Positions 9,241-61,196 of a stretch of 64,000 bases of DNA are shown here, one piece after another; positions within the stretch are counted from its first letter, which is position 1; each line of letters opens with the position of its first letter. This DNA comes from Clostridia bacterium (lineage in GTDB: Bacteria; Bacillota; Clostridia; UMGS1883; UMGS1540). The stretch lies in assembly GCA_045531205.1 (NCBI GenBank), contig JAZSDN010000104.1, positions 18,100 to 82,099 of the forward strand, read 5' to 3'. The notes below the pieces were generated by a model. The model saw only the letters and a list, made by a program, of their open reading frames with translations, made no database searches and was not told where the DNA came from. The position numbers were made by a program, and so were the translations under genes.

Positions 9241-9255
9241 GAAAGGACATTTTAA

Positions 9256-37209: not shown

Positions 37210-39273
37210 ATGTTAAAAAAACTCATGGCAATAGTCCTTGTTGGATTATTAACAATTGCTAGCATGGCAGTAATGCCTGCTATGGCGGCAAATTTTCAAT
37301 CCCAATACAACTTAAGCTTTGAGCAGACAACTCAAAGTGATGCAGCCTTACTTCCATCTGGCTGGACTGTTGGTGCAAATCTTTCATCCGATGAAACAAC
37401 CAATAGTTTTGCAGTAGTATCAAATGAACAGGCTCAAGAAGGAACTTATTCTTTAAAGATCAAGCACACTGCTATAGGAACTGTGAACGATAGAGTATGG
37501 AGAGTAGTGACAGGTCTTACACCTGGTGCACAATATGTTGTAACAGGATATATGTATTTAACAGGATATACAAATAATGCGGGTATAATGGTATTTGATG
37601 GCAATACAGGTGCATCTGGAGCGAACTGGATAAGCGGTTTGTCTGGTGGCACTGGTATTATGAATGAAACTACCCAGATAACAAAAGCAGGATTAAATAA
37701 ATGGATTCCCTTAACTGCAACCTTTACAGCACCTGCAAACGGTATTGTTTCTCTTGCAATTGGAGCATATAATTCATCTTCCACTAATGGTACAGTATAT
37801 TTTGATGCTCTTGATTTACACGAACTGAATTTTGAATATCATTACAATACCAGCTTTGAGCAGACAACTCAAAGTGGTACAGCCTTACTTCCGTCTGGCT
37901 GGACTGTTGGTACAAATCTTTCATCTGATGAAACAACCAATAGTTTTGCAGTAGTATCAAATGAACAGGCTAAAGAAGGAACTTATTCTTTAAAGCTCAA
38001 GCACACTGGTGTAAGTTCTGCGAACGATAGAGTATGGAGAGTAGTGAGCGATCTTACCCCAGGTGCACAATATATGGTAACAGGATATATGTATTTAGCA
38101 AATTATATGAAATATGCAGGAATATTTGTATATGATGGCAATACAGGTGCATCTGGAGCAAACTGGGCAAGCGGTCTGACTGGTACCACCGGTGCTATAG
38201 AAGAGGTTCCTCAGATAGTAAATGGATTATCAAATAAATGGCTTCCCTTGAGTGCAACCTTTACAGCACCTGCAAACGGAACTGTTTCTCTTGCAGTGGG
38301 AGCATATAATTCATCTTCTACTAATGGTACAGTATATTTTGATGACCTTGCTTTATACAAATTAGAAGACGGATTTGACGCTGAAAACAATTTAAGCTTT
38401 GAGCAAATAGAATCAAACTTTACAACATTCATTCCAACTGGCTGGAATATCAGCCTTTCATCCGATGAAACATCCGATAAATTTGCAGTAGTATCGGATG
38501 AACAGGCTAGAACAGGGAACTTTTCTTTAAAGATGAAGAACTCTTCATTGGCAAGTGTTACAGATAGACCTTGGAAATTAATAAGTGGTCTTACACCTGG
38601 TGCAGCATATATGGTAACAGGATATATGAAAGTAACATCACCCTTGTATTATGCGGGTATTAATGTATATGGATCTAACGATGGTACCGGTAGCTCCTGG
38701 TCAGGTTTAAATGTTAGTTCTGGTATTTTGAGTGAGACAAACATGATAACGTTAGGAGCAGGCAAATGGCTGCCTATTATTACATACTTTATTGCACCTG
38801 ATGATGGTGCGGTTTCACTTGCATTGGTAGCAAGCAATTCAGCTAGCACTAGTGGTATAGCATATTTTGATGATATTACCGTAACAAAAATGGCTGATAC
38901 AGTTGGCTTTGATGTAAAGGTTTTGGATGCAAATTTTGAAGAAGTAACAGATCTTAATGCAGGTCAGGCAACTACTGTTAAGCTTATGGTAAATGGCACA
39001 AATATGACTGCATCTGATAAAAACTACACACTTATTTATGCTACATACAGCAAGACTGGCGATATAGTAGAAATGAACACAGTAGCCCTCAGTGCAGGAA
39101 CAGTAGCTGCAAAGGCGGACGCTGCTACCGTACCTGGTTCCATAAATGCTAACGCAGGTGCTTGCATTAATAGTGCAATAAATATTACTATTCCCGCAGG
39201 TCAGACACTTAAAGTATTTATATTTGACAATATGGAAACACTTAACCTTGTTTCTGAAAAGGTAATTCAATAA
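37210..39273 (+). CDS. Secreted protein made of three tandem CBM4_9/CBM22-like carbohydrate-binding modules plus a C-terminal Ig-like domain, with no catalytic or anchoring domain
   Basis: A signal peptide (MLKKLMAIVLVGLLTIASMAVMPAMAA). There are three ~180-aa modules with the CBM4_9 pattern (NxSFEQ...GWT...EGTYSLK...LTPGAQYxVTGYM...WxPLxATFTAP...TVYFDD). Modules 1 and 2 are about 95% identical at the nucleotide level. Confidence 0.75.
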   Translation: MLKKLMAIVLVGLLTIASMAVMPAMAANFQSQYNLSFEQTTQSDAALLPSGWTVGANLSSDETTNSFAVVSNEQAQEGTYSLKIKHTAIGTVNDRVWRVVTGLTPGAQYVVTGYMYLTGYTNNAGIMVFDGNTGASGANWISGLSGGTGIMNETTQITKAGLNKWIPLTATFTAPANGIVSLAIGAYNSSSTNGTVYFDALDLHELNFEYHYNTSFEQTTQSGTALLPSGWTVGTNLSSDETTNSFAVVSNEQAKEGTYSLKLKHTGVSSANDRVWRVVSDLTPGAQYMVTGYMYLANYMKYAGIFVYDGNTGASGANWASGLTGTTGAIEEVPQIVNGLSNKWLPLSATFTAPANGTVSLAVGAYNSSSTNGTVYFDDLALYKLEDGFDAENNLSFEQIESNFTTFIPTGWNISLSSDETSDKFAVVSDEQARTGNFSLKMKNSSLASVTDRPWKLISGLTPGAAYMVTGYMKVTSPLYYAGINVYGSNDGTGSSWSGLNVSSGILSETNMITLGAGKWLPIITYFIAPDDGAVSLALVASNSASTSGIAYFDDITVTKMADTVGFDVKVLDANFEEVTDLNAGQATTVKLMVNGTNMTASDKNYTLIYATYSKTGDIVEMNTVALSAGTVAAKADAATVPGSINANAGACINSAINITIPAGQTLKVFIFDNMETLNLVSEKVIQ
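37315..38388 (+). repeat. Intragenic tandem duplication (2 x ~537 bp) encoding CBM-like modules 1 and 2 of the 37210 gene
   Basis: Near-identical nucleotide stretches begin agctttgagcagacaactcaaagtg at 37315 and again at 37852. The third module is clearly more diverged. Confidence 0.8.
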
Positions 39274-39303
39274 TCTGAAAAATTTTAATGGAGGTATAAA
39301 GCT

Positions 39304-40362: not shown

Positions 40363-40383
40363 GGTTTGAAGGAGGAAATAAAA

Positions 40384-40536
40384 ATGAAAGAAAAATATTT
40401 AACACCTTCGGCAGAAACCGTATTGTTTGACATTAACGCTGTATCAATGACTATAAATCTTGTAAGCCTTGAAGATAATGGCGAATCAAACCTTTTGAAC
40501 GATATCGGAAACGGTCTTGTTGTCGAAGAAAACTAA
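40384..40536 (+). CDS. Possible small protein (50 aa; MKEKYLTPSAETVLFDINAVSMTINLVSLEDNGESNLLNDIGNGLVVEEN)
   Basis: The ORF is below the track cutoff. AAGGAGGAAATAAAA-ATG is identical in form to the RBS of the neighbouring large genes. A terminator-like hairpin follows at about 40578-40616. Confidence 0.35.
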   Translation: MKEKYLTPSAETVLFDINAVSMTINLVSLEDNGESNLLNDIGNGLVVEEN

Positions 40537-40809
40537 ATTGATAAATTTTTTCTCATAGAAAAAGTTCTTCTCATACAAAAATATCCGCTTGCTTTTGGCA
40601 AACGGATATTTTTGTATAATTAACTAAGATGTGTGCGAAAAAAAGTGCAAACTCCCTGAAACTTAAAAAGTTGCTAAAAATTTCTGCATAAGGAACATTT
40701 TTTACACGCATCAGTTAATTTTTTTCATTTACTTTTTTGTGCTTGTATGCGATAATATATTATAGAATACCCGCAATGTATTCGTAGTAAATAAAAGGAG
40801 GAAATTATA

Positions 40810-42786
40810 ATGTTAAAAAAACTTATGGCAGTAGCCCTTGCGGGGTTATTAACACTCGGTAGCATGGCAATGATGACTACCGCAGAAACAGAACCGGTTA
40901 CAAGTCTGCTCTACGATTTTGAAAATCAGGAAATGGCAGGAGAAACCGGAGCACCAACCGGTTGGTGGACATATTTTGATGCAGAAGGTATTGTAAAGCT
41001 TAACGAAGAACAAACCGCAGGCCAGCCTGAAGTATATGGTCTTGGCAACAAGTGTTTGGAAATTGACTGTACAGGCAAAGAATATGACGAAGCTGCTTAC
41101 TTTAGTGTTACCTTAAAACCTAATACTACTTATGTTCTTTCAGCTTGGGTAAAAGGTGTAGACGGGGAAGGAAATCCTGCTACAGTATACTGCAGAGTAC
41201 CTTTGTTAGCACCCGGTGGAACTAATTACTCTGCTGATTATTTAACACGTGCATGGTCAAGCGGTGATGCCGCAGGAACAAAAAACTGGCACCAGTCAGT
41301 AAGTACTCCTTACACAACAGGGGATGAAGAAATTGCTACAACAGTATGGCTCAGAGGTCTTGCAGGTCATAAAGTATTTTACGACAACATTGCTTTATAC
41401 GAAGTAGCAGATAACTATAGCTCTTTTGAAAATGTAAAAGTAAAAGATTCAGCACTCGTTCCTGTTGATTGGAATACAGATGTCCTTTCAACAAATACTG
41501 AAACCGATAGCTATGCAGTAGTATCAAATGCAAAGGCTAAAACAGGTAACTATTCTTTAGAAGTAAAATCTACTTCATTAAATTTGGGTTACAGAGTGTG
41601 GAAACCTCTTAAAGGTCTTACCCCCGGTGCAAAATATATGGTAACAGGCTATGTAAACGTAACAGCACCTGTATATAACTTGGGTGTGGTTATATATGAC
41701 GGCAGCACAGGCGGTGGTACCAGCTGGACAGCAAATCTTTTATCTATGGCTCTTTTAAATAGAGATACTCAGCAGACAAAAGATGTATGGATGCCCCTTG
41801 TTACATACTTTGACGCACCCCAGAGCGGTGAAGCTTCTCTTGCTCTTATAACAAATATTGGTTATGGCTACTTGGGAACAACATATTTTGATGATTTTAC
41901 TGTATCAAAAGTTGAAGCTGGCGATGATGCTAAATACAACACCGGTTTTGAATATATCAAATCAACCGGTACAGCATTCGTTCCCGACGGCTGGAACTCT
42001 CCTCTTTCAACAGATACCGAAAGCAACAGCTATGCAATAGCATCAACCGAAAGAGTAAGAACAGGCAACTATTCTTTACAAATTAAGAATAACAGCTTTA
42101 ACGTTGGTCAGAGAGTATGGAGACAAATAACCGGTCTTACCCCAGGCAAAAAATATATGGTATCAGGCTATATGAATATTACATCACCCTTCAATTTGGC
42201 GGGAATGATTGTATTTGACGATAACAACGGCGGTGTAGGCTGGACATCAGGTCTTGGTATTTCAGGCGTTATGGGAGAGGCTGCACAGATGGCTGCAGGA
42301 TCAAATAAATGGTTGCCTGTAGTTACAACCTTTATTGCACCTGCAGACGGTATCGTTTCTCTTGCAATTGGAACATTCAATTCAGCTACCACAAACGGAA
42401 CGGCATATTTTGATGATATTACTATAACAGAAGTACCCGAAGGTGTTAAATACGATTTAAAGGTTCTGGACGCAGATGGTAAAGCAGCAACAGCTCTTAA
42501 TCCTGAACAGGATAACAATGTTACTATTGTGTTAGATGGAACAAATACTACTGCAGAGGAAAAACCATACACACTTGTTTATGCTACATATAGTAAAGAC
42601 GGTGAATTTGCAGAATTGCAGACAGTTTCTATTAAATCAAATGTGATGACAGTTCCTAATGACAAACAACCCGGTTTTGCAAAAGAAGTAATTGGTGTTA
42701 CAGTTCCCAAAGGACATACATTAAAAGTATTTTTATTTGAAGATATGAGCAAAATTAAAACAGCTGCTTCATATTCAGTTGAATAA
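40810..42786 (+). CDS. Secreted CBM4_9/CBM22-like module array protein (three modules plus a C-terminal Ig-like domain), paralog of the 37210 gene
   Basis: The RBS/start context (aaggaggaaattataATGttaaaaaaac) and signal peptide are the same as for 37210. The modules have the same CBM pattern and the C-terminal domain is the same. Confidence 0.75.
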   Translation: MLKKLMAVALAGLLTLGSMAMMTTAETEPVTSLLYDFENQEMAGETGAPTGWWTYFDAEGIVKLNEEQTAGQPEVYGLGNKCLEIDCTGKEYDEAAYFSVTLKPNTTYVLSAWVKGVDGEGNPATVYCRVPLLAPGGTNYSADYLTRAWSSGDAAGTKNWHQSVSTPYTTGDEEIATTVWLRGLAGHKVFYDNIALYEVADNYSSFENVKVKDSALVPVDWNTDVLSTNTETDSYAVVSNAKAKTGNYSLEVKSTSLNLGYRVWKPLKGLTPGAKYMVTGYVNVTAPVYNLGVVIYDGSTGGGTSWTANLLSMALLNRDTQQTKDVWMPLVTYFDAPQSGEASLALITNIGYGYLGTTYFDDFTVSKVEAGDDAKYNTGFEYIKSTGTAFVPDGWNSPLSTDTESNSYAIASTERVRTGNYSLQIKNNSFNVGQRVWRQITGLTPGKKYMVSGYMNITSPFNLAGMIVFDDNNGGVGWTSGLGISGVMGEAAQMAAGSNKWLPVVTTFIAPADGIVSLAIGTFNSATTNGTAYFDDITITEVPEGVKYDLKVLDADGKAATALNPEQDNNVTIVLDGTNTTAEEKPYTLVYATYSKDGEFAELQTVSIKSNVMTVPNDKQPGFAKEVIGVTVPKGHTLKVFLFEDMSKIKTAASYSVE

Positions 42787-43023
42787 TACATTTAAAATAC
42801 TGCTAAGGTAGCAGAAAATGACAGAGCAAAGGCTTTTAAAAAGCCTTTGCCTGTCCTTTATAATATAGATATCCAGGGAAATGAAATATTTTGGGTTAAA
42901 ATTTTGTCTCCTGGTTTGGCGGAGATATTAAAAAACGAATATTCCGCACATCCTGCTTTAAAAGTCAGAACAATGTGCGTTTTTATAAAGGAAGGTATGA
43001 AAAAGGAAAGGAATGAAAAATTT

Positions 43024-46000
43024 ATGAAAAAAAGATTTTTAGCCGTTTTATTGACACTTTGCTTGCTTATAACAAGCTTGCCCTTTGCAGCAATAGCTGC
43101 TGAAGGGGATAAAGACTTTATATTGAACGGCAGCTTTGAAGAAGTTAAATCAGACGGTAAAACACTTAGAGATTGGAGTGTTTTGGACTATAAAGATAAG
43201 TTTGTTGAAGCTTATGATGAAGAAGCGTATGAAGGGAAATATTCTGCGCGTCTTAATGGCGAAGGACAGGATAAGGTTCGTATTTACTTTAGCAAATTAA
43301 GAGATATGAAACCCGGAGGCAAATATACACTTTCATTCTTTGTAAATGCAAAGAATAAAAAAGGCGATCTTGTTTTAGACGTTACAGTTGCCGGAAAAAA
43401 CTATGCACAAAGCTACAAGCCAAAAGCTAACCGCTGGACTGAAATCACTCTTAACTTTACAGTACCTAAAACAGGAACGGCGGGTTCAATGTACATAGGT
43501 GCATATAACGGACTTGATGTTCTTGTTGACAAAGTAACAGTAATGGGACCTGTGCGTGGAGAAAACGACAACCCCGAAGTAGACGAAAACACTGTAACAC
43601 CCCCCGCAAGCACAGTAGAGGTTATTGCTGATACAGAAAAAAACAGCACACCTCCGAAATCCGTACCAAAGAGCGTTCCCGATTCCAATGCAATAGCAAG
43701 CGGCAGAAACCTTGTACAGAACGCCGATTTTGAAAATGATACAAACAATATTGGTCCCTGGAACTGGGAACCCTATTTTGCAGGCTGGGACCAGAATAAC
43801 CAGATGGTTGTTTATGATAAAACCTTTGGTCACGAAAGTGAGCGTTCAATTAAGCTCACTAACGGCAATCCCGCACAAAGACCCTGGGTCAGACAGGTAA
43901 TAGAAGTAAGTGCAGAAACTGAATACCAGGCAAGTATGTGGTACTACACAAACTTTACCGCCGAGGAAAGCGATGCAGATAAAAGAGGCAAAAGCAATAC
44001 TGTTATTATGGTTGAGTATTACACGGGCGAACCGGGCTCTGATACATATTTAGGTGTTGATGATTTATTTGCACTAAGTGGTACAGGCGGCAAGTGGATT
44101 CAGACTGCCGCAACATTTACCACACCTCCCAACACAAAGTATATTCGTTATTATGCACGCAGATACGGTGTCGGCACAGTTTGGGTTGACGATATGGCAC
44201 TTTACAGCACCACAAAGCCAAACCCCGTAGGTGTAAGTACCGACCAGATTTTCTATTATTCTGACCAGACCGCTGCAGGCGTTGCCACGGCGGAGCTTGA
44301 TTTACTCGCATTCCCCGAACTTGAAAACGCAAAAATTGACTTTGCATTGACACTTGATGGTAAAACTGTTGCAGAGCAGAAGGGCGTGCAGGCAAAAGGT
44401 TCTACTGCGACATGGTACTTTGACCTTTCCTGGATGACTAAAAAGCAAACAGAATACAGAATTGAAGCTACTGTAAACGGAAAAACTGATTTTGAAAGAG
44501 TATATAAATACGATCGTCCTACATATTTAGGAAAAGACGGAGTTTTCCGCAAAAACGGTCAGGCACTTATGCCGACTTATGCGTGGTACTATGTTGAAAG
44601 ACAGTACGGCTACGGAATGATAGACGCGCAGATAAATGTTGCCGAAGTAGGTATTCCTCGTTCGGAAAGTATGACTGACGCGCAAAAGATAGCCCAAATT
44701 ACAAAAACCCTGGATGACCTTTGGGCACGCGGTATGTACGGTCTTATCTTAACCTATAGTAATAGTAGGGGCGGTGGACATCCTGACCTCCGACACGATA
44801 CCGAGCTTATTTGTGCAGCAATTAAGGACCATCCCGCAGTTTATGCGTATATAAATAATGATGAGCCTTTTGCAAGAACAGGTAACCCGCATGATGAATT
44901 AAGAGAAACATATATTGCAATTCGTAATAATGACCCCAACCACCCCGTTATGTCAATGGAACAGGGTGCATACGGCGAAGCTGCAAAATTTGTAGATATT
45001 TTTGGTCATGACCCATACCCCGGCGATACTAGAGACCCACTTACCTACGTTGCTCAAAGAAGAAGCGATGCTGACGAGGCGACACAAGGTCTTAGACCTG
45101 TAAACTCGCTTTTACAGGTTATGAACTGGAGAGGATACTTCCCCACAGGCGACGACCTTCGTAGTATGATTTATCAAACATTCTTAGAGGGTGGCGGCAG
45201 CTACGGTTTCTTTAAATTTATAAATGCAAGTGACGCTGGCGACGATCTTGACGAAACACACCTTTGGGAACCACTTACAGAATTTACTCATAATGAGCGT
45301 GAGGACGCTTTTAAAGCCTTCGTATTTGACGAATATCCCATTTTCAGCAATGTTAAAAAGGATAATTATTGGGCAGTATCCTATGTAAAGGGCAACCAGG
45401 TTAATATGGTAGTCTTAAACCGTAAAAAAGAAGATCAGCAACTTTCAATACCTCTTACAAGCTGCGGCGGTACACATACTATAACCGAATTTACAGGTAA
45501 AGCAGCATTTGGTGGTAAGGGAGAGGACGTTTCAGGAAGCGGCGTATTAAACATTACATTACCCGCAGGCGCAGCAGTTCTTTATGAAATTAAACCTACG
45601 AATGTAGGCGAAATTGCAGGCGTACCCGTTATGCGTTTCCGTGATTTGGATGGTTACGACTGGGCATTTAATTCCATTTTAAAAATGGATAATGCAGGAG
45701 TATTAGACTCTTTGGCATACCATTACTACCGTCCCGAAAAAAACATTACAAGAGGCGACTTTGCAATGTTCCTCATTCGTGCGTTAGGTCTTACAGCCGA
45801 AAATGCAACCTGCACATTTACTGATGTATTGCCTGCAGTTACCTATTCAAAAGAAGTTGCAATAGGTCAGGCGTTAGGAATACTTCTTGGCTCAGGTGAC
45901 GGAACCTTTAGACCCGAAGAACCCATTTCAAGACAGGACTTCATGGTAATCTGTGCAAGAGGTATGCGTTTAGTTTCCGAAAACGGACTTTCGGGCGGTG

Positions 46001-46182
46001 ACCTTTCAGCCTTCTCTGATGCTTCTTTGGTAGCAGATTATGCAGCACAAGATATAATGGCAATGGTAAATGCAGGCATAGTAAAGGGTAATGCCGACGG
46101 CACAATTAACCCCCTTGGCAATACAACAAGAGCAGAAGCAGCAGTTATTATGGATAGAATCAGTGCTTGGAAAGCACAGTAA
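43024..46182 (+). CDS. Large cell-surface protein: signal peptide, 2 CBM4_9-like modules, a conserved unassigned ~450-aa glycosidase-like core, and 3 C-terminal SLH domains
   Basis: The SLH repeats are clear (FTDVLPAVTYSKEVAIGQALGILLGSGDGTFRPEEPISRQDF; NADGTINPLGNTTRAEAAVIMDRI). The core is shared with the 46225 and 48942 genes (YKYDRPTYLGKDGVFR, HPDLRHD, NNDEP, RETYIAIRNNDPNHPV, MEQG, GHDPYP). The start is set at MKKRFLAVLL by analogy with the paralog. In-frame alternatives are 42997 and the longest ORF from 42847. Confidence 0.7.
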   Translation: MKKRFLAVLLTLCLLITSLPFAAIAAEGDKDFILNGSFEEVKSDGKTLRDWSVLDYKDKFVEAYDEEAYEGKYSARLNGEGQDKVRIYFSKLRDMKPGGKYTLSFFVNAKNKKGDLVLDVTVAGKNYAQSYKPKANRWTEITLNFTVPKTGTAGSMYIGAYNGLDVLVDKVTVMGPVRGENDNPEVDENTVTPPASTVEVIADTEKNSTPPKSVPKSVPDSNAIASGRNLVQNADFENDTNNIGPWNWEPYFAGWDQNNQMVVYDKTFGHESERSIKLTNGNPAQRPWVRQVIEVSAETEYQASMWYYTNFTAEESDADKRGKSNTVIMVEYYTGEPGSDTYLGVDDLFALSGTGGKWIQTAATFTTPPNTKYIRYYARRYGVGTVWVDDMALYSTTKPNPVGVSTDQIFYYSDQTAAGVATAELDLLAFPELENAKIDFALTLDGKTVAEQKGVQAKGSTATWYFDLSWMTKKQTEYRIEATVNGKTDFERVYKYDRPTYLGKDGVFRKNGQALMPTYAWYYVERQYGYGMIDAQINVAEVGIPRSESMTDAQKIAQITKTLDDLWARGMYGLILTYSNSRGGGHPDLRHDTELICAAIKDHPAVYAYINNDEPFARTGNPHDELRETYIAIRNNDPNHPVMSMEQGAYGEAAKFVDIFGHDPYPGDTRDPLTYVAQRRSDADEATQGLRPVNSLLQVMNWRGYFPTGDDLRSMIYQTFLEGGGSYGFFKFINASDAGDDLDETHLWEPLTEFTHNEREDAFKAFVFDEYPIFSNVKKDNYWAVSYVKGNQVNMVVLNRKKEDQQLSIPLTSCGGTHTITEFTGKAAFGGKGEDVSGSGVLNITLPAGAAVLYEIKPTNVGEIAGVPVMRFRDLDGYDWAFNSILKMDNAGVLDSLAYHYYRPEKNITRGDFAMFLIRALGLTAENATCTFTDVLPAVTYSKEVAIGQALGILLGSGDGTFRPEEPISRQDFMVICARGMRLVSENGLSGGDLSAFSDASLVADYAAQDIMAMVNAGIVKGNADGTINPLGNTTRAEAAVIMDRISAWKAQ

Positions 46183-46224
46183 GCATTATATATCCTATAA
46201 TGAACATAGAAGGGAGTTACATTT

Positions 46225-48852: not shown

Positions 48853-48941
48853 AATAGAAAAGAACGGAAGTTTTTTCAATAGCGCAAAGGCTATTAACAG
48901 CCTTTGCACTGTACTTTTTGGAAGAAATGAGGGATTTTACA

Positions 48942-51900: not shown

Positions 51901-53072
51901 GTAGTTCAAGTACACAAGCATTAACTTCGGGTAGCGGCACAATTACCATTTCATTACCCGCAAGCAGTGCTGAATTTTATGTAATAACTCCGCAGAACAG
52001 TTCAGACCTTCCTGACGTTGAGCTTCCTGATGAAGAATTAACCCTGGATTCGGTTATATCCCGAGGAAAATTTGCTTCTATGCTTATTGATACACTGAAC
52101 ATTCCTGCTGGTGACCCAAGCGATAATTTTGCCGATGTTGACGAGGGTAAAAGCTACGCATCACAGATTTCAGCAGGTAAAGCTCTGGGCATCTTGGTAG
52201 CTGACGAGAATGATTTATTTAATCCAAACGGAAAACAGACAATAGATGATGCACTTTTAATGTGCCTTCGCGGATTAAGATATAAGAAAGCTCCTTTGGT
52301 TTCGGCAGAAGATATGGCAGCCTTTACCGAGGATGATTTGTTTGGGCTTTCCCCAGCTCCTGTTTTAGCCGCAAGCATATTAGAAAACAGACAAGCAGCA
52401 CGAGGAGAAAACATTTCTCTTGATTCAAATAATATAACTCTGTATGAAGCAAATAAGCTTTTAGAAAAGGTAGGAGCATTATTGCTTGATGAAAGTACAG
52501 ATTTTTCAAATCTTTCTGCCAATGGTGCACGTCAGGCTACAAGGATTTTAAAGGGTGGTATTTCAAACGTTAATGATGTTTTTGTTAGTACAGAAGGCAC
52601 TATGACAATTGTGTATAATGCAGCAAAAACTCCATACGCATATTCAAAGAGTATTGGCTCTGAAACAGTAAGTATTGCAACAAATACTGCAGAAATAACA
52701 ATTGCAGACGGTATTTTATCCGCTTTAGTTGAACCAAATAAATTCTTTGTTATAGCTAATGCGTCGGCTGTTAGACGAGGCTTCCATTTAGGTCAGATGA
52801 TATATCCATATCCTGTAGAGGGAAGCCGGGCACAGATGGAACCTGATGCATTTCTCGGAATATATGATGTTTCTGGAGAGTTTAAAGAATTGCTTGGAAC
52901 CTTCAAAAACGGAGATATAATGCCACAAACAACAAAAGACTTTAAGTTTTTGAAGTGGGATGAAAATTTGAATCCCAAAAGTGACATTCTTTTAGAACTT
53001 ACAATACTCAGAGCTTCTGAAGATTCTATGTCAAATATTATTCAGGGCATAGGGGATGGGCTTGAAAAATAA
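48942..53072 (+). CDS. Large cell-surface paralog (about 1376 aa): signal peptide, 3 CBM-like modules, the same conserved core, degenerate SLH-like repeats and an extra C-terminal region of unknown function
   Basis: It shares the core blocks (YKYDRPLYIGKDGVFR, HPSRRERT, MNMDEP, RETYIAIRNNDPYHPV, TEQG, GIDPY, FYKF). GAGGGA lies 7 nt upstream of the start at MKKRIL. The ORF-track start at 48918 is a TTG further upstream. Confidence 0.7.
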   Translation: MKKRILAWLLVLVVLFTMTPLATAVTAEDEIEQNAELLTNGDFESVTADGKTLNYWNPWVTTADYSEYTIVTDDVYEGNYAVKMKYDSSTGKLRNAITRTESNVVVGGQSYTFTAYAKACEAVGSVSIEIKFGGYGEEAIAYNNNSTDYVVGQYQKIEKTFSVPAEVTSFSIYIRVYGGEFIFDNFSIKGPKRIIEIIQPDEVIAQDTTPPQGTEQEVQSEFIPNNSFEATSTWLGTTYLKNWTALSNANDYGEYTISTDAKDGAKAIKMAFDSTKGKIRNTIYQRVDIPLVAGESYTFTAYVKGLTSEAAASVQIEQGSFLQVVSYNNTQENYAQGEYVTLEHTFTAPEGITSFNVFIRITSGEFIWDKVSIVGARMMTAVESVPNADYISGLPNILIDSSFEEKITGRNATGGWGTTTQFVNNFGHNSATCARIVNTTENTRNYLAQRLTLHGGCVYQVSLWICMEKPSDTKYSAAKNGSMAVDYITYGLDGSVIKDQSQSLGVTGTDGKWKQCVFQITPTDGTAAAMIMPRLTGRGTAWVDDVEVSLVSNENAWAVSVETDEVFYYSDREEAGTATVAINVGAHPELVGEDITFTLLRNGATLGTNTMKCESGKNYYNSSFDLSLLSEKKAEYIMKVEIGEYTAETKLYKYDRPLYIGKDGVFRDKNGKVFKPFYAYNMLDEHLDFAAEDANFNLHMIGIPSDKDGEELVQYMRNELDELQQKGYMALVQTYGLYEGLNVPGGHPSRRERTATVVAGLKDHPALFGYMNMDEPMTQSRDLRDDLRETYIAIRNNDPYHPVCTTEQGSYDKSVKYVDVLGIDPYVGTNVPYTYVGNKVTEAVAATKGEKPVYAVLQAFEWRSYWPSRNDLRDMIYQAIMAGASGIGFYKFVDAKGELELHATDLWPVISDFGQNEWNTAYKAFVKGDYPEFSTKRETNYWMNSFVKENNKLIMYVANRTNAVQEITFTLVSDDNTMSIGAYTVESSSSTQALTSGSGTITISLPASSAEFYVITPQNSSDLPDVELPDEELTLDSVISRGKFASMLIDTLNIPAGDPSDNFADVDEGKSYASQISAGKALGILVADENDLFNPNGKQTIDDALLMCLRGLRYKKAPLVSAEDMAAFTEDDLFGLSPAPVLAASILENRQAARGENISLDSNNITLYEANKLLEKVGALLLDESTDFSNLSANGARQATRILKGGISNVNDVFVSTEGTMTIVYNAAKTPYAYSKSIGSETVSIATNTAEITIADGILSALVEPNKFFVIANASAVRRGFHLGQMIYPYPVEGSRAQMEPDAFLGIYDVSGEFKELLGTFKNGDIMPQTTKDFKFLKWDENLNPKSDILLELTILRASEDSMSNIIQGIGDGLEK

Positions 53073-53136
53073 TCTGCCCAAACTTCAGAATGGAAAGAAA
53101 AGGTATAGTAAATAAAGTTAAAAGAGGTAGAAAGCA

Positions 53137-54207
53137 ATGAAAAAAATTCTTAGAGTGTTATTAGCAATGATAATGCTGTTTTCAATGATGTGCACTCTTT
53201 TTGTAAATGCTGACACCACTACCATTGTTGTAACACAAGCCACAATGGGAACAGATGGCAATGTTACTGTACGTGGTAAAGTTACCTCGGGGACACCCGG
53301 TGCAGTAACAATTCTGGTAACGGTGCAGAATGCAGCAAACGGCAAGGAAGCTTTGAGTACAATGGCTGATGGTTCAACAGTAGCCTATGCTGACCAAACA
53401 AGTCCTAATCAAAGTGGTGAATTTGAATTCAAATTCAAACCAAAAGCAGATTTGTCAGGTTCACACACAACAATATATGTATGTGCAACAGGTGTTACGA
53501 TAGAAAACTTGTTTGCCGAAAACCTTACAGGCAATGAGGTTAAAGTAAATTATGGCACTACAACAAAACCATATGAAAGCGTAGACGGCGTTGTAACAAT
53601 ATCCTTACGTCCCGCAGAAAAAGACAGTGTAGCTATCGCAACCGAAACAGGTTACTTTAAGCAGTGGGATATTATGGGTATAAAATCAACTACAGAAGGG
53701 ACACAAAAAGAGGTTACACTTAATAATAACATCAAAGCCGGAATACTTACAGCTAAACCTGAATTTTTTGATGATCCCGCACATACATCTGTTTCAGCGG
53801 CAAAAGCACAGAGTGTTATATTGGCAAACGGAAAAAAAGCAATCCGTTTTCTGGCACTTGTAGGAGAAGATTATGAAAACTATGCAAATGCAGGTTTTGT
53901 ACTTTCAACATTAGGAACAAATCCCACAGTTGAAGCAGGCTACAAAGCACATAAATTCAATAATTTGTATAAAAAGATTATTGCCGAAGGTGCTGAATTA
54001 GATGTTACAGATGAAGCAATTAAAAATACTTTTGAGACCACATTTACACCCGCAGGCATCCTCTATGCAAACCTTGTAATCGAAGAAGGAAATGAAAATA
54101 CAGTGTATTATGCAACACCTTATCTTGAAGATGCAAGACACAACAGAATTTATGGAGCAACAAAGAAAATAAGCTTAAATGAGCTTACACAGTTAGATGC
54201 TCAATAA
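53137..54207 (+). CDS. Hypothetical secreted protein (356 aa), paralog of the 39304 gene
   Basis: A signal peptide and collinear similarity to the 39304 product. It is followed by a terminator hairpin (gtttgcttttaagcaaac + T-run) homologous to the one after the 39304 gene. Confidence 0.7.
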   Translation: MKKILRVLLAMIMLFSMMCTLFVNADTTTIVVTQATMGTDGNVTVRGKVTSGTPGAVTILVTVQNAANGKEALSTMADGSTVAYADQTSPNQSGEFEFKFKPKADLSGSHTTIYVCATGVTIENLFAENLTGNEVKVNYGTTTKPYESVDGVVTISLRPAEKDSVAIATETGYFKQWDIMGIKSTTEGTQKEVTLNNNIKAGILTAKPEFFDDPAHTSVSAAKAQSVILANGKKAIRFLALVGEDYENYANAGFVLSTLGTNPTVEAGYKAHKFNNLYKKIIAEGAELDVTDEAIKNTFETTFTPAGILYANLVIEEGNENTVYYATPYLEDARHNRIYGATKKISLNELTQLDAQ

Positions 54208-54615
54208 AGCTTGAATGAGGATGTAAATAAAAAATATCTAAAATCTTTGATAGAAAAAGTATTATTTATGAAGAATAATTTACGATAAGTTATTTTTCTC
54301 AAAAAATCCAAAAAACAAAAAATAAGTTTGCTTTTAAGCAAACGGATTTTTTGTTTGGCGAAAATCACCCTAAGTCTGCGTGGTTTAAAAAAGGTTAACT
54401 GATGAACAGATAACGAAGTGTAATTTATTCCAAAAAGCAAATTGTTATTGTAATATCGCAGTATAGTACACACAATCTGCCGCTGCAAAAAAACAATCCA
54501 TTTATGGATAGCTTTTTTAAAAACATCTTTAGCATTAGTTGTTAAATCAAAGTTAAGTTTTAAACGCAAAACCATGCAAAACAAAAATAATATCACTTAA
54601 ACGCGATATAATTAC

Positions 54616-54654
54616 TATAAAAAATCAGGCGTAGTGTTTTAACACTACGCCTGA
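54616..54654 (-). terminator. Rho-independent terminator of the minus-strand SLH gene
   Basis: Perfect 12-bp stem tcaggcgtagtg-ttttaa-cactacgcctga. The plus-strand A-run becomes a U-tract on the minus strand. Confidence 0.8.
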
Positions 54655-54675
54655 AATCAAGGTTTCAATTTTTGT

Positions 54676-57600
54676 TTATCTGTATGCTATACACATCATA
54701 AGTGTATACTTGCTGTAATAAGAAACAATCTTATCGCCTACAACAAGCTCTTCGGGAGTAATACGGGTTAATTCTTCTGTTTCAGTATCCCATACTGCAT
54801 AGTAGCCGGTAGCTGAAGGAAGAGCACGAGTTGTTTTGTAGCCTGAAGGTTCACCGGATATGGTATAACTCTTTCCGTAAGTACCTACACCGTCACCCTT
54901 AGCAAGGTTTGTTTCTACAAGAACAGAACCTCCATCAAGTACTTTAACTACATAACCATCTGTAATTGTAAGACCACCTGTATAGAGTTCATCAGGGCTG
55001 GTTATCTGCGGACCATACAAGTTAGTTACGCCCATTTCTACATCGCCGGGGTATTCAGCACGATACATAACAGAACCGGTTTTTAATGTGCCGTCGGTAT
55101 TAAGTTCGTACTGAATGATATCGCCAGGCATAAGGTCTGCAACATCTATAAATATGTCTTTTGCTCTGGAACGTTCGCCTTTAATTTCAGGATCAGTAAC
55201 AGCGGGCTGATACTTTGTTACTTTATCTGATTTGAGCATATACCAGTCGGGGTCGCCGGGGAGGGTTACGATCTGGCCATTTTCTAAAGCTGTACGGCTC
55301 CATAAACGAGCGTTAGCACCTCTGTAGAAAATTCGACTGTTATCTTCATTTATAATAGCGTCAATTTCTTCGCCGGCGTTACTATGGAGTTTTAAAACAT
55401 CTACTATTTCGCCGGTTTCTTCAGAAACAAGTTTCGAGAAGCCAAGAACAAGTGCTGCTCTTGCTTCACCATCGGGTAATTCTAATCCGCTGTCTGAAGT
55501 TGTGGGTAACAAGTCTCTTCTGTTAACAACTGCACCGCAGATGTAATCCATATCCATATCATAGAATACAAGACAAGCTTTTACAGCTACTCTACGGAAT
55601 ACGTCGATACCTCTGAATTCATTCTTAGCATCTAAAACAGCGTAATCCTTTTCTATACTTGCATCGTAAGGAATTATAAAGTAAGGAACACCTGATTCTA
55701 TACGCAAACGGCTGAAAAGAGTGTGGCTTATATATTCAACAGCACGATCACCTAATGCAGCATTTTTACCTTCTTCACTACCTTCAAGTGTACCATTATA
55801 CATTCTGCTGGGGCCATTTCCTTCTGCTGCCTGGAGATTTGAATTACCTCTCATGAAGTAGTCCAAACTGAATTCGCCGCCTGCTTTATCTTCAGCAGGA
55901 GTATCAAGTCTTGATTCATTTACAGCTGTTTCAATTGAAATGAGGTAGCCTTCTTCGTCAACTTCATAAGAAATCAACTGAGGAACTACTACACCATTGT
56001 TGTCTACCAGGGTGGGAGCAGTTTTTGAATCGTACATTCTTTCAATTATTTTGCCGTTCTTCAAAAGGTCTTTGCCTAAAATACGTGTGCCGTTGAATGT
56101 AACATGTTCAGCTGCTGTAAGGAGTAACCATTCCTCGTCTGCTGTAAAGATGTAAATCTGTGCTTTGGGGCTGATACCGGGAGTATAAGCCGCATTCTTA
56201 AGCCAAGCATAATTACGCATTTCTGCTGACAATTCGCCAATAGCTGCAATTGTGCCAAAGTAGTCAAGACGGAAAGCAGCAGGTTTGCCTACGGGAATTT
56301 CAGCAAGATTCATGCTTACATTGTATGTTTCGTCATCAATTACAACAGTACTGTCTGTTTTATCCATTTCTGTAACAGTACCTTCAAGAACTTCGTAGCT
56401 GCTGTAAATTTTGCGAATAGTTGCATTTGATTCGCTATCCTGTGCTACGCTGAGGATATCGCCGGAAAGCAAATCTTCAAGAGCCAGGTCATTACCGTCA
56501 GCATCTTTTAAGATGTTTTTAACATCAGTGCTTTCTAAATCAATTATCATAGAAGAACCGTTTTCAAAGATTACTTTGTTATCTTTTGCGATAACACTCT
56601 TGATTACATAGTTCTTATATTCTTCAACAATTACTGTGTTACATTTTGTTCCGTTGTCAAAAACTAAACGAACTGAACCGCTTTTGGGGGCTAAAAGCGC
56701 TTTATCCATAGCAATAACTCGTCCGTTGTATACGAGTGTAGCACCTGTGATTTCAGCCTTTTTTTCGTCCTTTTCAACTTCATAGAAAAGAGTGTTTGCT
56801 GTTGTTTTACCAGTGTTAACGTCTTTTCCAACGAGGTCTACAACTTTTGAATTATTTGAAGGAATAACAGCAACCAAAACGTTCATTCCAACGGCTTCAT
56901 CTTCCTTATAGTATACATCTGAAGGAATTGCAAAAAGGCTTTCTACATCTACTTTGCCTGCCTTCATTACTTGGTTTTTGCCATTTACAGGAACAACAAC
57001 TTCGTCACTTGATAAGTTTGAAGTTTCTTTTATAGCTGCTGCTGTAGCGGTCTGAACGATTTTAGATTCAATGCGGGTTGCATTTTGGTAACGGGTAAGT
57101 AATGTTACATCTTCATCGAATGTGTATTCGAGGTTATCGTTACCATAGCTTGCACGTTCTGCAAGAGGAGCTTCAAGTGCATTGTAAATCAAAATTGCCA
57201 TATTGCCACGGGTCATTGTAGCATCTGTTGCAACGCCCTTTAACAAATCAAGCTGTGTTGCTTTTACAAGGTATCCTGAAGGATATCCGCCAAGTGCATC
57301 TGCCTGAACACCGTAACCTAAAGCTGCAACTACCATTTTTACTGCCTGCTCGTAAGTAACAGTTGCGTCAGGAGCAAATGTCTGTGCATCAATTCCGTTG
57401 ATGATACCCATCTGATATGCAGCACTTACATAAGAGTAAGCCCAGTGAGTAGAGGGAACATCAGCGAATATGTCCTTGCCAGTGATGCCGTCTGCTAAAT
57501 TGATGGCACGTAAAATTATTGTTGCCATTTCTGCTCTTGTCAAAGAACCATCGGGGTCATAATTGCCCTCGGGTTTACCTTCAACAATTCCAAAAGCAGC

Positions 57601-57726
57601 TAATACTTCTACTGCTGTTTCATAGTTTGTGCCTTCTGTATCCGGGAAGGATGCAGCAAATACGCTTAATTGAGGTAATGTCAAAAGCATAACACAAACC
57701 AAAAACATTGCGAGTCGTCTTTTCAT
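54676..57726 (-). CDS. S-layer-associated protein: signal peptide, 3 N-terminal SLH domains and an ~830-aa region of unknown function
   Basis: The SLH repeats are clear (FPDTEGTNYETAVEVLAAFGIVEG...LTRAEMATIILRAI; FADVPSTHWAYSYVSAAYQMGIING). The remainder has no motif I can assign. Confidence 0.7.
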   Translation of the reverse strand: MKRRLAMFLVCVMLLTLPQLSVFAASFPDTEGTNYETAVEVLAAFGIVEGKPEGNYDPDGSLTRAEMATIILRAINLADGITGKDIFADVPSTHWAYSYVSAAYQMGIINGIDAQTFAPDATVTYEQAVKMVVAALGYGVQADALGGYPSGYLVKATQLDLLKGVATDATMTRGNMAILIYNALEAPLAERASYGNDNLEYTFDEDVTLLTRYQNATRIESKIVQTATAAAIKETSNLSSDEVVVPVNGKNQVMKAGKVDVESLFAIPSDVYYKEDEAVGMNVLVAVIPSNNSKVVDLVGKDVNTGKTTANTLFYEVEKDEKKAEITGATLVYNGRVIAMDKALLAPKSGSVRLVFDNGTKCNTVIVEEYKNYVIKSVIAKDNKVIFENGSSMIIDLESTDVKNILKDADGNDLALEDLLSGDILSVAQDSESNATIRKIYSSYEVLEGTVTEMDKTDSTVVIDDETYNVSMNLAEIPVGKPAAFRLDYFGTIAAIGELSAEMRNYAWLKNAAYTPGISPKAQIYIFTADEEWLLLTAAEHVTFNGTRILGKDLLKNGKIIERMYDSKTAPTLVDNNGVVVPQLISYEVDEEGYLISIETAVNESRLDTPAEDKAGGEFSLDYFMRGNSNLQAAEGNGPSRMYNGTLEGSEEGKNAALGDRAVEYISHTLFSRLRIESGVPYFIIPYDASIEKDYAVLDAKNEFRGIDVFRRVAVKACLVFYDMDMDYICGAVVNRRDLLPTTSDSGLELPDGEARAALVLGFSKLVSEETGEIVDVLKLHSNAGEEIDAIINEDNSRIFYRGANARLWSRTALENGQIVTLPGDPDWYMLKSDKVTKYQPAVTDPEIKGERSRAKDIFIDVADLMPGDIIQYELNTDGTLKTGSVMYRAEYPGDVEMGVTNLYGPQITSPDELYTGGLTITDGYVVKVLDGGSVLVETNLAKGDGVGTYGKSYTISGEPSGYKTTRALPSATGYYAVWDTETEELTRITPEELVVGDKIVSYYSKYTLMMCIAYR

Positions 57727-61166: not shown

Positions 61167-61196
61167 TTTTTTGTCTCCTTTCATTTCCGTTGCCAT

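Follow-up and report, generated by a model that had tools for sequence, protein, structure and literature searches.

A recurrent locus of SLH-anchored and secreted proteins with a divergent GH2-like barrel core in a Clostridia bacterium

Organization of the locus

The window analyzed here is a stretch of 64,000 nucleotides, in which positions 37210-57726 carry eight signal-peptide genes in succession, designated g1 to g8. Genes were taken from the open reading frame list, and inspection of the translations revealed a K/R-rich segment, a hydrophobic stretch, and an Ala-rich signal-peptide-like end at each N-terminus, in agreement with the original prediction of eight consecutive surface or secreted proteins at these positions. 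The earlier gene list was correct for these eight genes but overlooked a ninth, a small open reading frame (sORF). Genes g1 to g7 are on the plus strand and g8 is on the minus strand. The location of the cluster, approximately 3 kb downstream of ssrA and beside a GH78 gene, was also as predicted. The genes and associated features are as follows:

33729-34078: tmRNA gene (ssrA), about 3.1 kb upstream of the cluster
34488-36665: GH78 rhamnosidase gene, between ssrA and the cluster
37210..39273, plus strand: g1, secreted protein of 687 aa with three CBM-like repeats of ~179 aa and a C-terminal domain of ~130 aa
39304..40362, plus strand: g2, secreted protein of 352 aa, paralogue of g7
40384..40536, plus strand: sORF for a 50-aa acidic peptide, with the ribosome binding site (RBS) AAGGAGG
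40581..40615, plus strand: terminator (hairpin and T-run) closing the g1-g2-sORF unit, homologous to the terminator after g7
40810..42786, plus strand: g3, secreted CBM-array protein of 658 aa, paralogue of g1
42826..42850, plus strand: hairpin between g3 and g4, GCAAAGGC...GCCTTTGC, with a stem that recurs after g5
43024..46182, plus strand: g4, 1052 aa, beginning with a signal peptide
45634-46179 (g4) and 48304..48849 (g5), plus strand: homogenised SLH-coding 3' ends, by nucleotide and third-codon identity
46225..48852, plus strand: g5, 875 aa, beginning with a signal peptide
48884..48907, plus strand: hairpin between g5 and g6, homologous to the hairpin after g3
48942..53072, plus strand: g6, 1376 aa, beginning with a signal peptide
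53137..54207, plus strand: g7, 356 aa, paralogue of g2
54208..54290, plus strand: decayed sORF copy after g7, which has lost its RBS and ATG
54326..54352, plus strand: terminator closing the g3-g7 unit
54625..54654, minus strand: g8 terminator, a 13-bp stem followed by a T-run
54676..57726, minus strand: g8, 1016 aa, with a signal peptide, three SLH repeats (aa 25-185), and a chain of small all-beta domains
57775..57804, minus strand: promoter-like site of g8, by consensus match only (TTGACA, 18-nt spacer, TAAAAT)

The three repeats of g1 are encoded by direct repeats of 537 nt that are 77-91% identical. They are called CBM-like only through their homology to the CBM_4_9 module of g4 (27% identity, E 6e-8, BLASTP); g1 has no Pfam match at E <= 0.01, and its CBM_4_9 score of 17.3 bits is below the cut-off of 25.9. 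Its paralogue g3 (37% identity over 695 aa by BLASTP, with the repeats common to both) reaches 33.3 bits for CBM_4_9. Both proteins are closed by the ~130-aa domain, which is not a CBM. The description of g1 and g3 as two CBM-only arrays thus holds for the CBM_4_9 content of g3 but not for the C-terminal domains, nor for a Pfam match in g1. The RBS and start contexts of the two genes are 86% identical over 84 nt, as expected from the near-identity noted earlier for paralogues.

The predicted pair of ~350-aa paralogues, g2 and g7, is 60% identical (BLASTP). No Pfam, NCBIfam, or PDB sequence match was obtained for g2, and a single full-length relative of the pair was found outside the source genome among 5.8 billion proteins searched. 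The C-terminal ~140-220 aa of g2 recur as a C-terminal module in large surface proteins, including adhesin-like proteins with MucBP and Flg_new repeats. The sORF has a copy after the g2-like gene of a related locus (L002), with 78% amino acid and 83% nucleotide identity. Of the codons for residues identical in the two copies, 35 of 38 are themselves identical, as compared to fractions of 0.49-0.61 in the flanking genes, i.e. the synonymous sites of the sORF are conserved.

In g4, the signal peptide is followed by a CBM_4_9 module, a second jelly-roll, an Ig-like domain, a GH-A-like TIM barrel, a beta-sandwich, and three SLH repeats (52.5 bits for CBM_4_9 and 82.8 bits for SLH, with an SLH cut-off of 20.8). 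The predicted start at 43024 was preferred over the 42847 of the open reading frame list, since it precedes a signal peptide and lies 8 nt after position 43016, where homology with the closest available relative (L001) sets in. The g5 protein is composed of a jelly-roll (aa 55-222), an Ig-like domain (227-322), a TIM barrel (323-590), a beta-sandwich (596-681), and three SLH repeats (694-875); its CBM_4_9 score (23.2 bits) is below the cut-off, and the module is homologous to that of g4 by BLAST. The largest protein, g6, contains two CBM_4_9 modules (68.4 bits), a jelly-roll, an Ig-like domain, a TIM barrel as in g4 and g5, a beta-sandwich, a degenerate SLH remnant, and a C-terminal extension of ~190 aa. 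No SLH match was found in g6 with Pfam at E <= 0.01, only a single sub-threshold one (16.4 bits), together with weak BLAST similarity to the SLH region of g8. Three tandem SLH repeats are C-terminal in g4 and g5, N-terminal in g8, and absent from g6; of the three large SLH-anchored proteins with a common core that had been proposed, g4 and g5 stand, whereas g6 is of an SLH-less partner type. SLH triplets of characterised proteins bind pyruvylated secondary cell-wall polymer, and those of g4 and g5 would hold these proteins on the wall. An N-terminal-SLH protein on the opposite strand had likewise been predicted, and the architecture of g8, along with its consensus-like promoter, is consistent with a candidate S-layer-type structural protein.

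Paralogy is evident throughout the cluster, with the pairs g1/g3, g2/g7, and g4/g5; g4 and g5 are 67% identical over 864 aa (BLASTP), and g6 is more distant (30-36% to g4 and g5). The last ~170 codons of g4 and g5 are 84-94% identical at the nucleotide level, in line with the ~90% reported earlier, and their third-codon identity is 0.72-0.86 as compared to about 0.5 elsewhere, a signature of gene conversion. Homologous terminators downstream of paralogues had been predicted and were found after g2 and g7, as were homologous hairpins after g3 and g5. The cluster has grown by duplication and consists of a first unit comprising g1, g2, and the sORF, and a second unit of g3, g4, g5, g6, g7, and the decayed sORF, in which g4 and g5 are a tandem pair whose SLH ends have been kept alike by gene conversion.

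Fold and putative catalytic centre of the core barrel

The core of g4, g5, and g6 follows the domain order of GH2, i.e. jelly-roll, Ig-like domain, (beta/alpha)8 barrel, and beta-sandwich. An AF2 model of g5 (pLDDT 90.2) was aligned by Foldseek with GH2 beta-glucuronidases over 550-700 columns (E 1e-17 to 1e-15), and profile matches of the barrel alone were obtained to GH158 (3.6e-11), GH2 (1.5e-9), and GH5 (2.7e-7). Comparison of 25 barrel segments of the family with Pfam yielded Glyco_hydro_2_C for 10 (weak), GH42 for 6 (weak), Apiosidase for 5, and GH5 for 2 (weak). No GH match was found in Pfam for g4, g5, or g6 at E <= 0.01, nor for the g5 barrel at E <= 0.1. By the Foldseek and profile matches, the core, previously described as unassigned, is a very divergent GH2-like (beta/alpha)8 barrel of clan GH-A, with GH158 as the closest barrel.

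Similarity to both families is limited. The (beta/alpha)8 proteins of the GH2 beta-glucuronidase/beta-galactosidase type share the domain order of g4-g6 with 9-12% identity to the core barrel proteins, and the cluster proteins differ in their SLH anchors (g4, g5) and extra fused CBMs. The profile match to the GH158 endo-beta-1,3-glucanases (BuGH158, PDB 6pal; GH158(Pro), 9oro) spans beta3-beta6 only, with 13-17% identity to the barrel and a different catalytic signature. Furthermore, GH158 is part of a Bacteroides polysaccharide utilisation locus, as opposed to the Gram-positive, SLH-anchored system described here. Two sites of g5 were of particular relevance for the catalytic centre:

47533..47538, plus strand: D437-E438 codons of g5, motif NNDEP, end of beta4
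47788..47790, plus strand: Q522 codon of g5, last residue of beta7, where the nucleophile Glu of clan GH-A is placed

The putative acid/base E438 is invariant in 28 relatives and two homologues from distant phyla (Latescibacterota and Gemmatimonadota); it aligns on the N-E-P Glu of human beta-glucuronidase, and Y489 aligns on the beta6 Tyr of that enzyme. It is preceded by an equally invariant D437, giving D-E-P where clan GH-A has the Asn of N-E-P. At the place of the beta7 nucleophile Glu, Gln is found in g4, g5, and g6, in 25 of the 28 relatives, and in both distant homologues; only two relatives (P0015 and P0020) have Glu. The alignment to beta-glucuronidase reaches KPII, three residues short of the nucleophile, and the beta7 strand of g5 spans 517-522 (DSSP), so that the equivalence of Q522 is to be read within about one residue. 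The beta6 residues D482, D487, and Y489 are also invariant, and the family signature can be written as D-E-P ... D-x-Y-P ... L-Q-A-F. Based on barrel topology, D437, E438, D487, Y489, and Q522 would be expected to cluster in space.

The combination of D-E-P with Gln at beta7 points either to a non-canonical centre, which may be substrate-assisted, or to a function similar to that of lectins. Adjacent Asp and Glu at the end of beta4 in the absence of an enzyme nucleophile are found in GH20, in which the D-E pair acts by a substrate-assisted mechanism (PMC10570127), and D437-E438 with Gln presents the same arrangement. In hexosaminidases of the GH20, GH84, and GH18 type, a TIM barrel with adjacent beta4-end carboxylates and a helper Tyr likewise dispenses with the enzyme nucleophile (PMC10570127), and D437-E438, Y489, and Q522 fill the corresponding places. 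This likeness is one of mechanistic logic only, as neither detectable sequence homology nor top-ranked structural similarity to the barrel was found for these families.

Recurrence of the module in related genomes

A word-indexed search of 5.8 billion clustered proteins yielded about 28 relatives of the core family, all from uncultured gut Clostridia. The closest available relative (L001) has a g4 orthologue that is 92% identical. Upstream of this orthologue are ffh, secD, secF, a HAD hydrolase gene, a DNA-alkylation repair gene, and an LMW phosphatase gene, and g1-g3 are absent from that position. A g6 orthologue that is 43% identical was found in L002, where the gene order is g3-like, g4-like, g6-like, g2-like, and sORF. 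Nine loci (L002, L003, L004, L006, L010, L011, L013, L014, and L019) have an SLH-less barrel gene immediately after an SLH-bearing one, a CBM array is directly upstream of barrel genes in three (L002, L003, and L019), and a g8-like gene is adjacent to barrel genes in L011, L013, L015, L019-L021, and L024-L025. In L019-L021 the g8-like gene is directly followed by a PF00144 gene (beta-lactamase / D-Ala-D-Ala carboxypeptidase family). In one case (L022) a g8 homologue occurs alone, without barrel genes. Where the barrel genes have expanded, two to four divergent paralogues are present at a locus.

Metagenome-assembled genomes (MAGs) of ruminant-gut Clostridia contain a defined, recurrent four-part surface module, comprised of a CBM-array protein, an SLH-anchored barrel protein, an SLH-less barrel protein, and an all-beta protein of ~1000 aa with N-terminal SLH repeats. 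The protein families are rare and, with the upstream genes of L001 being different, genomic position is not conserved, consistent with the prediction of a lineage-specific locus; neither core synteny in all relatives nor assignment of every protein to a well-characterised family was found. Taken together, duplication and gene conversion have produced a lineage-restricted locus for surface and secreted carbohydrate-related proteins. The guts of ruminants and other animals harbour abundant uncultured Oscillospirales, and little is known of how these bacteria deal with polysaccharides at their surface. The catalytic-type domain escapes current family models, and as a result annotation pipelines describe such proteins only as "S-layer homology domain-containing".

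Proposed function and alternative explanations

With moderate confidence, the cluster is interpreted as a module for glycan processing at the cell surface, chromosomal and specific to the lineage of its host, a gut Clostridia (Oscillospirales-like) bacterium. The catalytic-type core common to g4, g5, and g6 would putatively cleave glycan, g1 and g3 as secreted CBM4/9-like arrays may capture polysaccharide, and g8, whose small beta domains form an SLH-anchored chain and whose gene has a promoter-like site and a terminator of its own, may serve as an S-layer-type scaffold, with g2, g7, and the sORF as presumed accessory proteins. The barrels would be active glycosidases with a non-canonical centre, for which the most likely mechanism may be substrate-assisted cleavage of a 2-acetamido sugar, E438 acting as acid/base and D437 stabilising the oxazolinium in parallel to the GH20 D-E pair. 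Failing substrate assistance, another carboxylate such as the invariant D487 could act as nucleophile.

The original prediction also considered an integrated locus downstream of ssrA. The proximity of the tmRNA gene, the rarity of the protein families, and the different genes upstream of g4 in the closest relative, where homology starts just ahead of the start codon, would suit a horizontally acquired genomic island. However, no integrase, recombinase, or transposase open reading frame was seen in the region, and no direct repeat of the tmRNA 3' end was found downstream (longest match 11-12 nt, E >= 0.18). A 540-bp spacer and the GH78 gene stand between ssrA and the cluster, and the cluster families are spread over related MAGs in varied chromosomal contexts. 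Nor is composition atypical in the proposed comparison with the housekeeping region, as GC content is 0.38-0.43 versus 0.35-0.45 in the flanks, and GC3 and codon-usage distance are within the flank range. An island at ssrA is thus very improbable. A different question is whether the module serves the cell's own envelope, with SLH-anchored enzymes trimming or remodelling secondary cell-wall polymer, S-layer glycan, or capsule rather than foraging for nutrients, a situation that would resemble the slpA/cwp paralogue cluster of Clostridioides difficile. The neighbouring genes encode GH78, an EamA transporter, an HTH-cupin-AMP-binding fusion, a PLP decarboxylase, and a radical SAM protein, and include no sugar transporter (ABC or PTS) or regulator, whereas typical Gram-positive polysaccharide-utilisation loci have glycosidases beside both; this leaves room for a cell-envelope role. 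So do the repeated co-location of barrel genes with the g8 family and the PF00144 gene that follows g8-like genes, and the D-E signature would suit HexNAc-rich wall polymers. Against this, many CBM4/9-type modules together with separate secreted CBM arrays are typical of enzymes acting on exogenous polysaccharides, a rhamnosidase gene adjoins the cluster, the divergent paralogues at each locus fit a diversified substrate range, and g8-like genes are also found where barrel genes are absent. Dedication to the envelope is considered unlikely.

We give similarly low credence to the barrels being pseudo-enzymes, i.e. lectin-like glycan-binding proteins in an adhesion or glycan-capture array that does not cleave. 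In favour of this reading, Pfam GH thresholds are not reached by any protein in the window, CBM-like modules are numerous, the C-terminal domain of g2 is shared with adhesin-like proteins, and the prevailing Gln in place of the nucleophile is also expected of a non-catalytic, lectin-like descendant. Yet invariance across phyla extends to the acid/base Glu and the Asp beside it as well as to the Tyr and two Asp of beta6, which is not expected after loss of catalysis; P0015 and P0020 have Glu at the nucleophile place; and substrate-assisted families need no enzyme nucleophile (PMC10570127). If the barrels are inactive, the family represents a clean case of an enzyme scaffold recruited for binding. 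If they are active glycosidases, as favoured here, they would represent a new GH family, whose Asp-Glu/Gln centre would depart in an unusual way from the two-glutamate rule of clan GH-A. A more elaborate form of this idea is speculative and considered unlikely: a family of nucleophile-free, substrate-assisted (or otherwise non-canonical) clan GH-A barrels, its signature kept from gut Clostridia to Latescibacterota and Gemmatimonadota, which in Oscillospirales would operate as an obligate pair of wall-anchored and free paralogues on a g8 scaffold with CBM arrays, the co-transcribed 50-aa peptide, or a nucleotide-constrained RNA element, being a further component.

The cluster appears to add a glycosidase-like system to those known to be anchored at the S-layer. 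S-layer-associated multidomain glycosidases of Clostridia (e.g. the 'S-layer associated multidomain endoglucanase' that is the source of PDB 2zew) similarly carry, within a single secreted polypeptide, an SLH triplet along with jelly-rolls of the CBM4/9/16/22 type and a barrel of clan GH-A, whereas the barrel described here belongs to no described family, and the cluster has tandem SLH-bearing and SLH-less pairs, CBM-array proteins, and a conserved N-terminal-SLH partner. For that partner, g8, the SLH-anchored S-layer proteins Sap of Bacillus anthracis and SpaA of Paenibacillus alvei are among the closest known systems.

Gene content and accessory families of the cluster

Between positions 37210 and 57726, the ORF listing gave eight long open reading frames (g1 to g8), all on the plus strand except g8. 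Judged by eye from the translations, all eight N-termini resembled Sec signal peptides, in which a basic segment precedes a hydrophobic run and an end rich in Ala, in agreement with the original prediction of eight consecutive genes for surface or secreted proteins.

Features of the region (g1 to g8 from the ORF listing)
33729-34078, tmRNA
34488-36665, GH78 alpha-L-rhamnosidase gene
37210-39273, plus strand, g1, putative carbohydrate-binding array
39304-40362, plus strand, g2, paralogue of g7
40810-42786, plus strand, g3, putative carbohydrate-binding array
43024-46182, plus strand, g4, barrel protein with C-terminal SLH domains (the mechanical ORF list instead begins at 42847)
46225-48852, plus strand, g5, barrel protein with C-terminal SLH domains
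48942-53072, plus strand, g6, barrel protein
53137-54207, plus strand, g7, paralogue of g2
54676-57726, minus strand, g8, protein with N-terminal SLH domain

BLASTP among the eight proteins related g1 to g3 (37% over 695 aa), g4 to g5 (67% over 864 aa), g4 and g5 to g6 (30-36% over about 800-1000 aa), and g2 to g7 (60% over their full length), the last being the expected pair of ~350-aa paralogues. Pfam CBM_4_9, a carbohydrate-binding module family, was above threshold in g3, g4 and g6, and S-layer homology (SLH) domains were C-terminal in g4 and g5 and N-terminal in g8, the minus-strand gene for which such an anchor had been foreseen. The Pfam scan of g1, g2 and g7 returned no match, and the NCBIfam scan gave only SLH-driven or sub-threshold matches. 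Three large SLH-anchored proteins with a common core had been proposed, which holds for g4 and g5, whereas the C-terminal region of g6 has one SLH match of 16.4 bits against a cut-off of 20.8, so that an SLH assignment is unproven for g6. The SLH remnant of g6 is followed by a ~190-aa extension common only to the g6-like protein of L002, a related locus in an Acutalibacteraceae MAG.

The proteins g1 and g3, described earlier as composed of carbohydrate-binding modules only, are predicted to be arrays of three CBM4/9-like jelly-rolls each, but both are closed by a further C-terminal domain of ~130 aa and of no known type. The internal 537-nt repeats of g1 are 77-91% identical and match the bona fide CBM_4_9 of g4 (BLASTP, E 6e-8), and module 1 of g3 is above the Pfam CBM_4_9 threshold. 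Searches of PDB sequences with g1 alone, g2 alone and a g2 profile gave no matches.

The word-indexed search found one other full-length relative of g2/g7, and with a g2/g7 profile an exhaustive HMMER search against 1.84 billion representatives found 79 proteins. The last ~140-220 residues are an undescribed module (aa ~135-352 in g2) that is found again at the C-terminus of many large proteins of 670-1900 aa (P0180-P0213); in two of these large proteins Flg_new, MucBP and ALK/LTK glycine-rich domains are present as well. This recurrence in large, partly Flg_new- or MucBP-bearing proteins suggests a surface-association or binding module described by no library. The remaining gene, g8, is preceded by a consensus-like promoter (TTGACA, 18 nt, TAAAAT) and a good RBS and is closed by a strong terminator, a combination that would fit an S-layer-type structural protein.

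Fold and putative active-site signature of the barrel family

In order to place the region common to g4, g5 and g6, g5 was used as query in a word-indexed search of 5.8 billion clustered proteins, in which the core was found in only about 28 proteins, a family size estimated by this one search. Their sources were all MAGs of uncultured Clostridia, Oscillospiraceae or Ruminococcaceae, and those with a name were annotated "S-layer homology domain-containing protein". Exact-sequence look-ups of g5, P0001 and P0002 gave no record. A profile of 28 sequences matched PDB sequences of GH158 (3.9e-9), GH2 beta-glucuronidases (4e-8) and GH5 (1e-4), and a barrel-only profile gave lower values for GH158 (3.6e-11), GH2 (1.5e-9) and GH5 (2.7e-7). 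The AlphaFold2 model of g5 (pLDDT 90.2, pTM 0.84) comprised five parts.

Predicted domains of g5 (AlphaFold2 model)
aa 55-222, jelly-roll
aa 227-322, Ig-like sandwich
aa 323-590, eight-fold beta/alpha barrel
aa 596-681, beta-sandwich
aa 694-875, SLH triplet

Among 25 family barrel segments, weak Pfam matches were to Glyco_hydro_2_C (10/25), Glyco_hydro_42 (6/25), Apiosidase (5/25) and Cellulase (2/25), and the g5 segment had no match in the same scan. On the profile searches, the model and these weak or absent matches, the core is a very divergent, GH2-like catalytic-type module of clan GH-A that curated models do not cover. The core regarded as unassigned in the original prediction can thus be given a fold, which takes away much of its mystery.

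The 28-sequence alignment contained three invariant groups (g5 numbering): D437 and E438 in the motif xDEP at the end of beta4; D482, D487 and Y489 in the motif D-x-x-x-x-D-P-Y at the end of beta6; and Y320, R324 and P325 in the motif YKYDRP directly before the barrel. When HMMER aligns the family to human beta-glucuronidase, "mDEPf" falls on the enzyme's "aNEPa", which gives E438 the position of the acid/base Glu and D437 that of the clan-typical Asn, and "DpY" falls on "NsY", the beta6 Tyr. The alignment stops at K-P-I-I, three residues short of the enzyme's nucleophile. The corresponding strand of g5 (DSSP 517-522) terminates in L-L-Q; position 522 is Gln in 25 of the 28 relatives and Glu in two (P0015, P0020), and this beta7-type strand holds no other conserved acidic residue in the alignment. 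Homologues of 588 aa from Latescibacterota and Gemmatimonadota MAGs carry V-D-E-P, D-V-Y-P and I-A-Q-A-F, and retention of the signature in these phyla points to the Asp-Glu/Gln combination being an old, selected feature rather than recent decay.

These 588-aa proteins (L016-L018, about 9125-10894) combine the barrel with D-E-P, D-x-Y-P and Q-A-F, and the family thus extends well beyond gut Clostridia. Their Glyco_hydro_42 whole-protein scores were 24-26 bits against a cut-off of 21, with zero passing single domains.

In retaining TIM barrels that have no enzymatic nucleophile and carry adjacent beta4 carboxylates, the 2-acetamido group of the substrate serves as nucleophile, as in GH20 with its D-E pair, GH84 and GH18. 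The GH20 pair and the substrate-assisted mechanism have been described (PMC10570127). On this precedent we infer that substrate-assisted cleavage of a HexNAc-containing glycan is the most likely chemistry of the barrel; no GH20, GH84 or GH18 structure was among its top structural matches. An alternative carboxylate nucleophile, e.g. the invariant D487, would rank second, and loss of catalysis third. As a nucleophile, E470 was rejected, being Asn in distant homologues and missing from three relatives. An extracellular phosphorylase, a reading prompted by GH112, was also set aside as implausible for secreted, wall-anchored proteins, with nothing in its support.

Duplication and recurrence of the gene units

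Several traces of duplication expected from the first inspection were recovered. The start regions of the paralogues g1 and g3 are 86% identical across 84 nt, including the RBS AAGGAGG, and the stretches following g2 and g7 are homologous, each closing with a hairpin terminator of one type; another hairpin, GCAAAGGC...GCCTTTGC, is present 3' of both g3 and g5. The 3' ends of g4 and g5, put earlier at about 90% nucleotide identity, were 84-94% identical over the last ~170 codons (the SLH triplet), with third-position identity of 0.72-0.86 in the codon alignment, compared with about 0.6-0.7 and about 0.5, respectively, upstream of the triplet. Gene conversion of the anchor module would produce such a gradient.

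In a search for related loci with a 10-sequence alignment, barrel relatives were encoded at 18 loci of species-representative genomes, 15 of them in Clostridia MAGs, some labelled goat rectum; several genomes had multiple loci. Domain mapping revealed a recurrent pattern: an SLH-bearing barrel gene followed immediately by an SLH-less one (L002, L003, L004, L006, L010, L011, L013, L014, L019), often with a CBM-array gene directly upstream (L002, L003, L019) or an adjoining g8-like gene (L011, L013, L015, L019-L021, L024-L025). An SLH-bearing barrel gene almost always had an SLH-less paralogue directly after it. The pairing suggests a functional pair, possibly a hetero-oligomer by analogy with multimeric GH2 and GH42 enzymes. 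The g8-barrel association is frequent and not obligatory, since one g8 homologue (L022) stands alone; the 381-aa protein upstream of it, considered as a g2 relative, is instead an unrelated membrane protein. Directly after the g8-like gene, a PF00144 gene (beta-lactamase / D-Ala-D-Ala carboxypeptidase family) was present in L019 (11054-12511), L020 (6353-7810) and L021 (5137-6630), which may indicate a cell-wall connection.

The order in L002 (g3-like, g4-like, g6-like, g2-like, then a small ORF) equals the g3-g7 stretch of the window without the g4/g5 duplication. On this basis the window contains two units. Unit B (g3, g4, g5, g6, g7, a decayed small ORF and terminator) is the ancestral arrangement plus an extra anchored paralogue, and unit A (g1, g2, small ORF and terminator) a partial duplicate without barrel genes.

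The small ORF (sORF), a gene absent from the eight-gene count of the first reading, encodes 50 aa, has a strong RBS and lies directly after g2 (40384-40536, plus strand); the decayed copy 3' of g7 lacks RBS and ATG. It is much better conserved than its neighbours when compared with its L002 copy (8807-8959): nucleotide identity is 83%, third-codon identity 0.84 versus 0.42-0.51 for flanking orthologue pairs, the codon is the same at 35 of 38 identical residues, and the first 47 nt are identical. A common closing helix pairs the 5' and 3' ends of the sORF in the window and L002 RNAs (z -1.39 and -2.66). The sORF may encode a peptide, act as an RNA element or have been exchanged recently. A degenerate-pattern metagenome scan found no further copies. 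The C-terminal tails of g6-type proteins (window 53030-53069; L002 7564-7653) are weakly sORF-like (hydrophobic, acidic, then I-G-x-G-L), a match that was not significant (E 0.34); in both the window and L002, a g2/g7-type gene adjoins such a tail or the sORF.

Chromosomal setting and comparison with known systems

The upstream side of the tmRNA gene (ssrA) is housekeeping, with infB, pnp, a class II tRNA synthetase gene, pgm, hrcA-dnaK-dnaJ, secA, prfB, thiI and a topoisomerase IV/gyrase A-type subunit gene. Integration of the cluster at ssrA, as initially suggested, was rejected: no integrase or transposase ORF was found in the region, no downstream repeat of the tmRNA 3' end was present, and composition resembles the surroundings, with cluster GC (0.38-0.43), GC3 (0.25-0.35) and codon-usage distance (0.46-1.04) all inside the range of other genes and hence no shift against the housekeeping region. 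The expectation of a lineage-specific locus rather than core synteny fared better. In L001, the closest available relative, the g4 orthologue has 92% protein and 89% nucleotide identity, homology to the window begins 8 nt before the g4 start codon, and the genes upstream are others (ffh, secD, secF, a HAD hydrolase gene, a DNA-alkylation repair gene and an LMW phosphatase gene). The position of the cluster is thus not conserved. With no marks of insertion, the locus is lineage-specific and rearranges through duplication and shuffling within the chromosome rather than through site-specific insertion. A metagenome scan with the GH78 protein, for comparison of ssrA flanks, found nothing.

In its mode of working the cluster may be likened to the S-layer-anchored multidomain glycosidases of cellulolytic and saccharolytic Clostridia. 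A further parallel, as a set of surface glycosidase and glycan-binding proteins, is the Bacteroides beta(1,3)-glucan locus, which contains GH158 (PMC7157763). Unlike these systems, it has a barrel family without curated model, a distinctive conserved pairing of anchored and unanchored paralogues, the extra accessory families g2/g7 and g8, and no adjacent transporter or regulator; the barrel itself differs from clan GH-A in missing two defining residues. Two features of the locus are noteworthy: the Asp-Glu/Gln centre kept across phyla and its recurrent four-part module.

In the spacer between the GH78 gene and g1 (36700-37100), ATATTGTAGGG occurs at 36743 and 36783 and the inverted CCCTACAAT near 36862, and 36965-36989 form a GC-rich hairpin. 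Across the window the number of motif copies was not above chance (reached by 7 of 100 shuffles), and an Rfam E-value search of the spacer gave only sub-threshold, chance-level matches. At gathering level, Rfam returned only the tmRNA and a Na+ riboswitch aptamer (RF03071; 18880-18932, plus strand; 45 bits, gathering score 40.5) between dnaJ and secA. Beyond the cluster, at 58866-61196 and 61579-63902 (both minus strand), a gene for a 776-aa HTH_3-cupin-AMP-binding (acyl-adenylate-forming) fusion adjoins a radical SAM gene and one of the PLP-dependent Orn/Lys/Arg decarboxylase family; the fusion is an unusual regulator-enzyme protein in a small putative metabolic operon.
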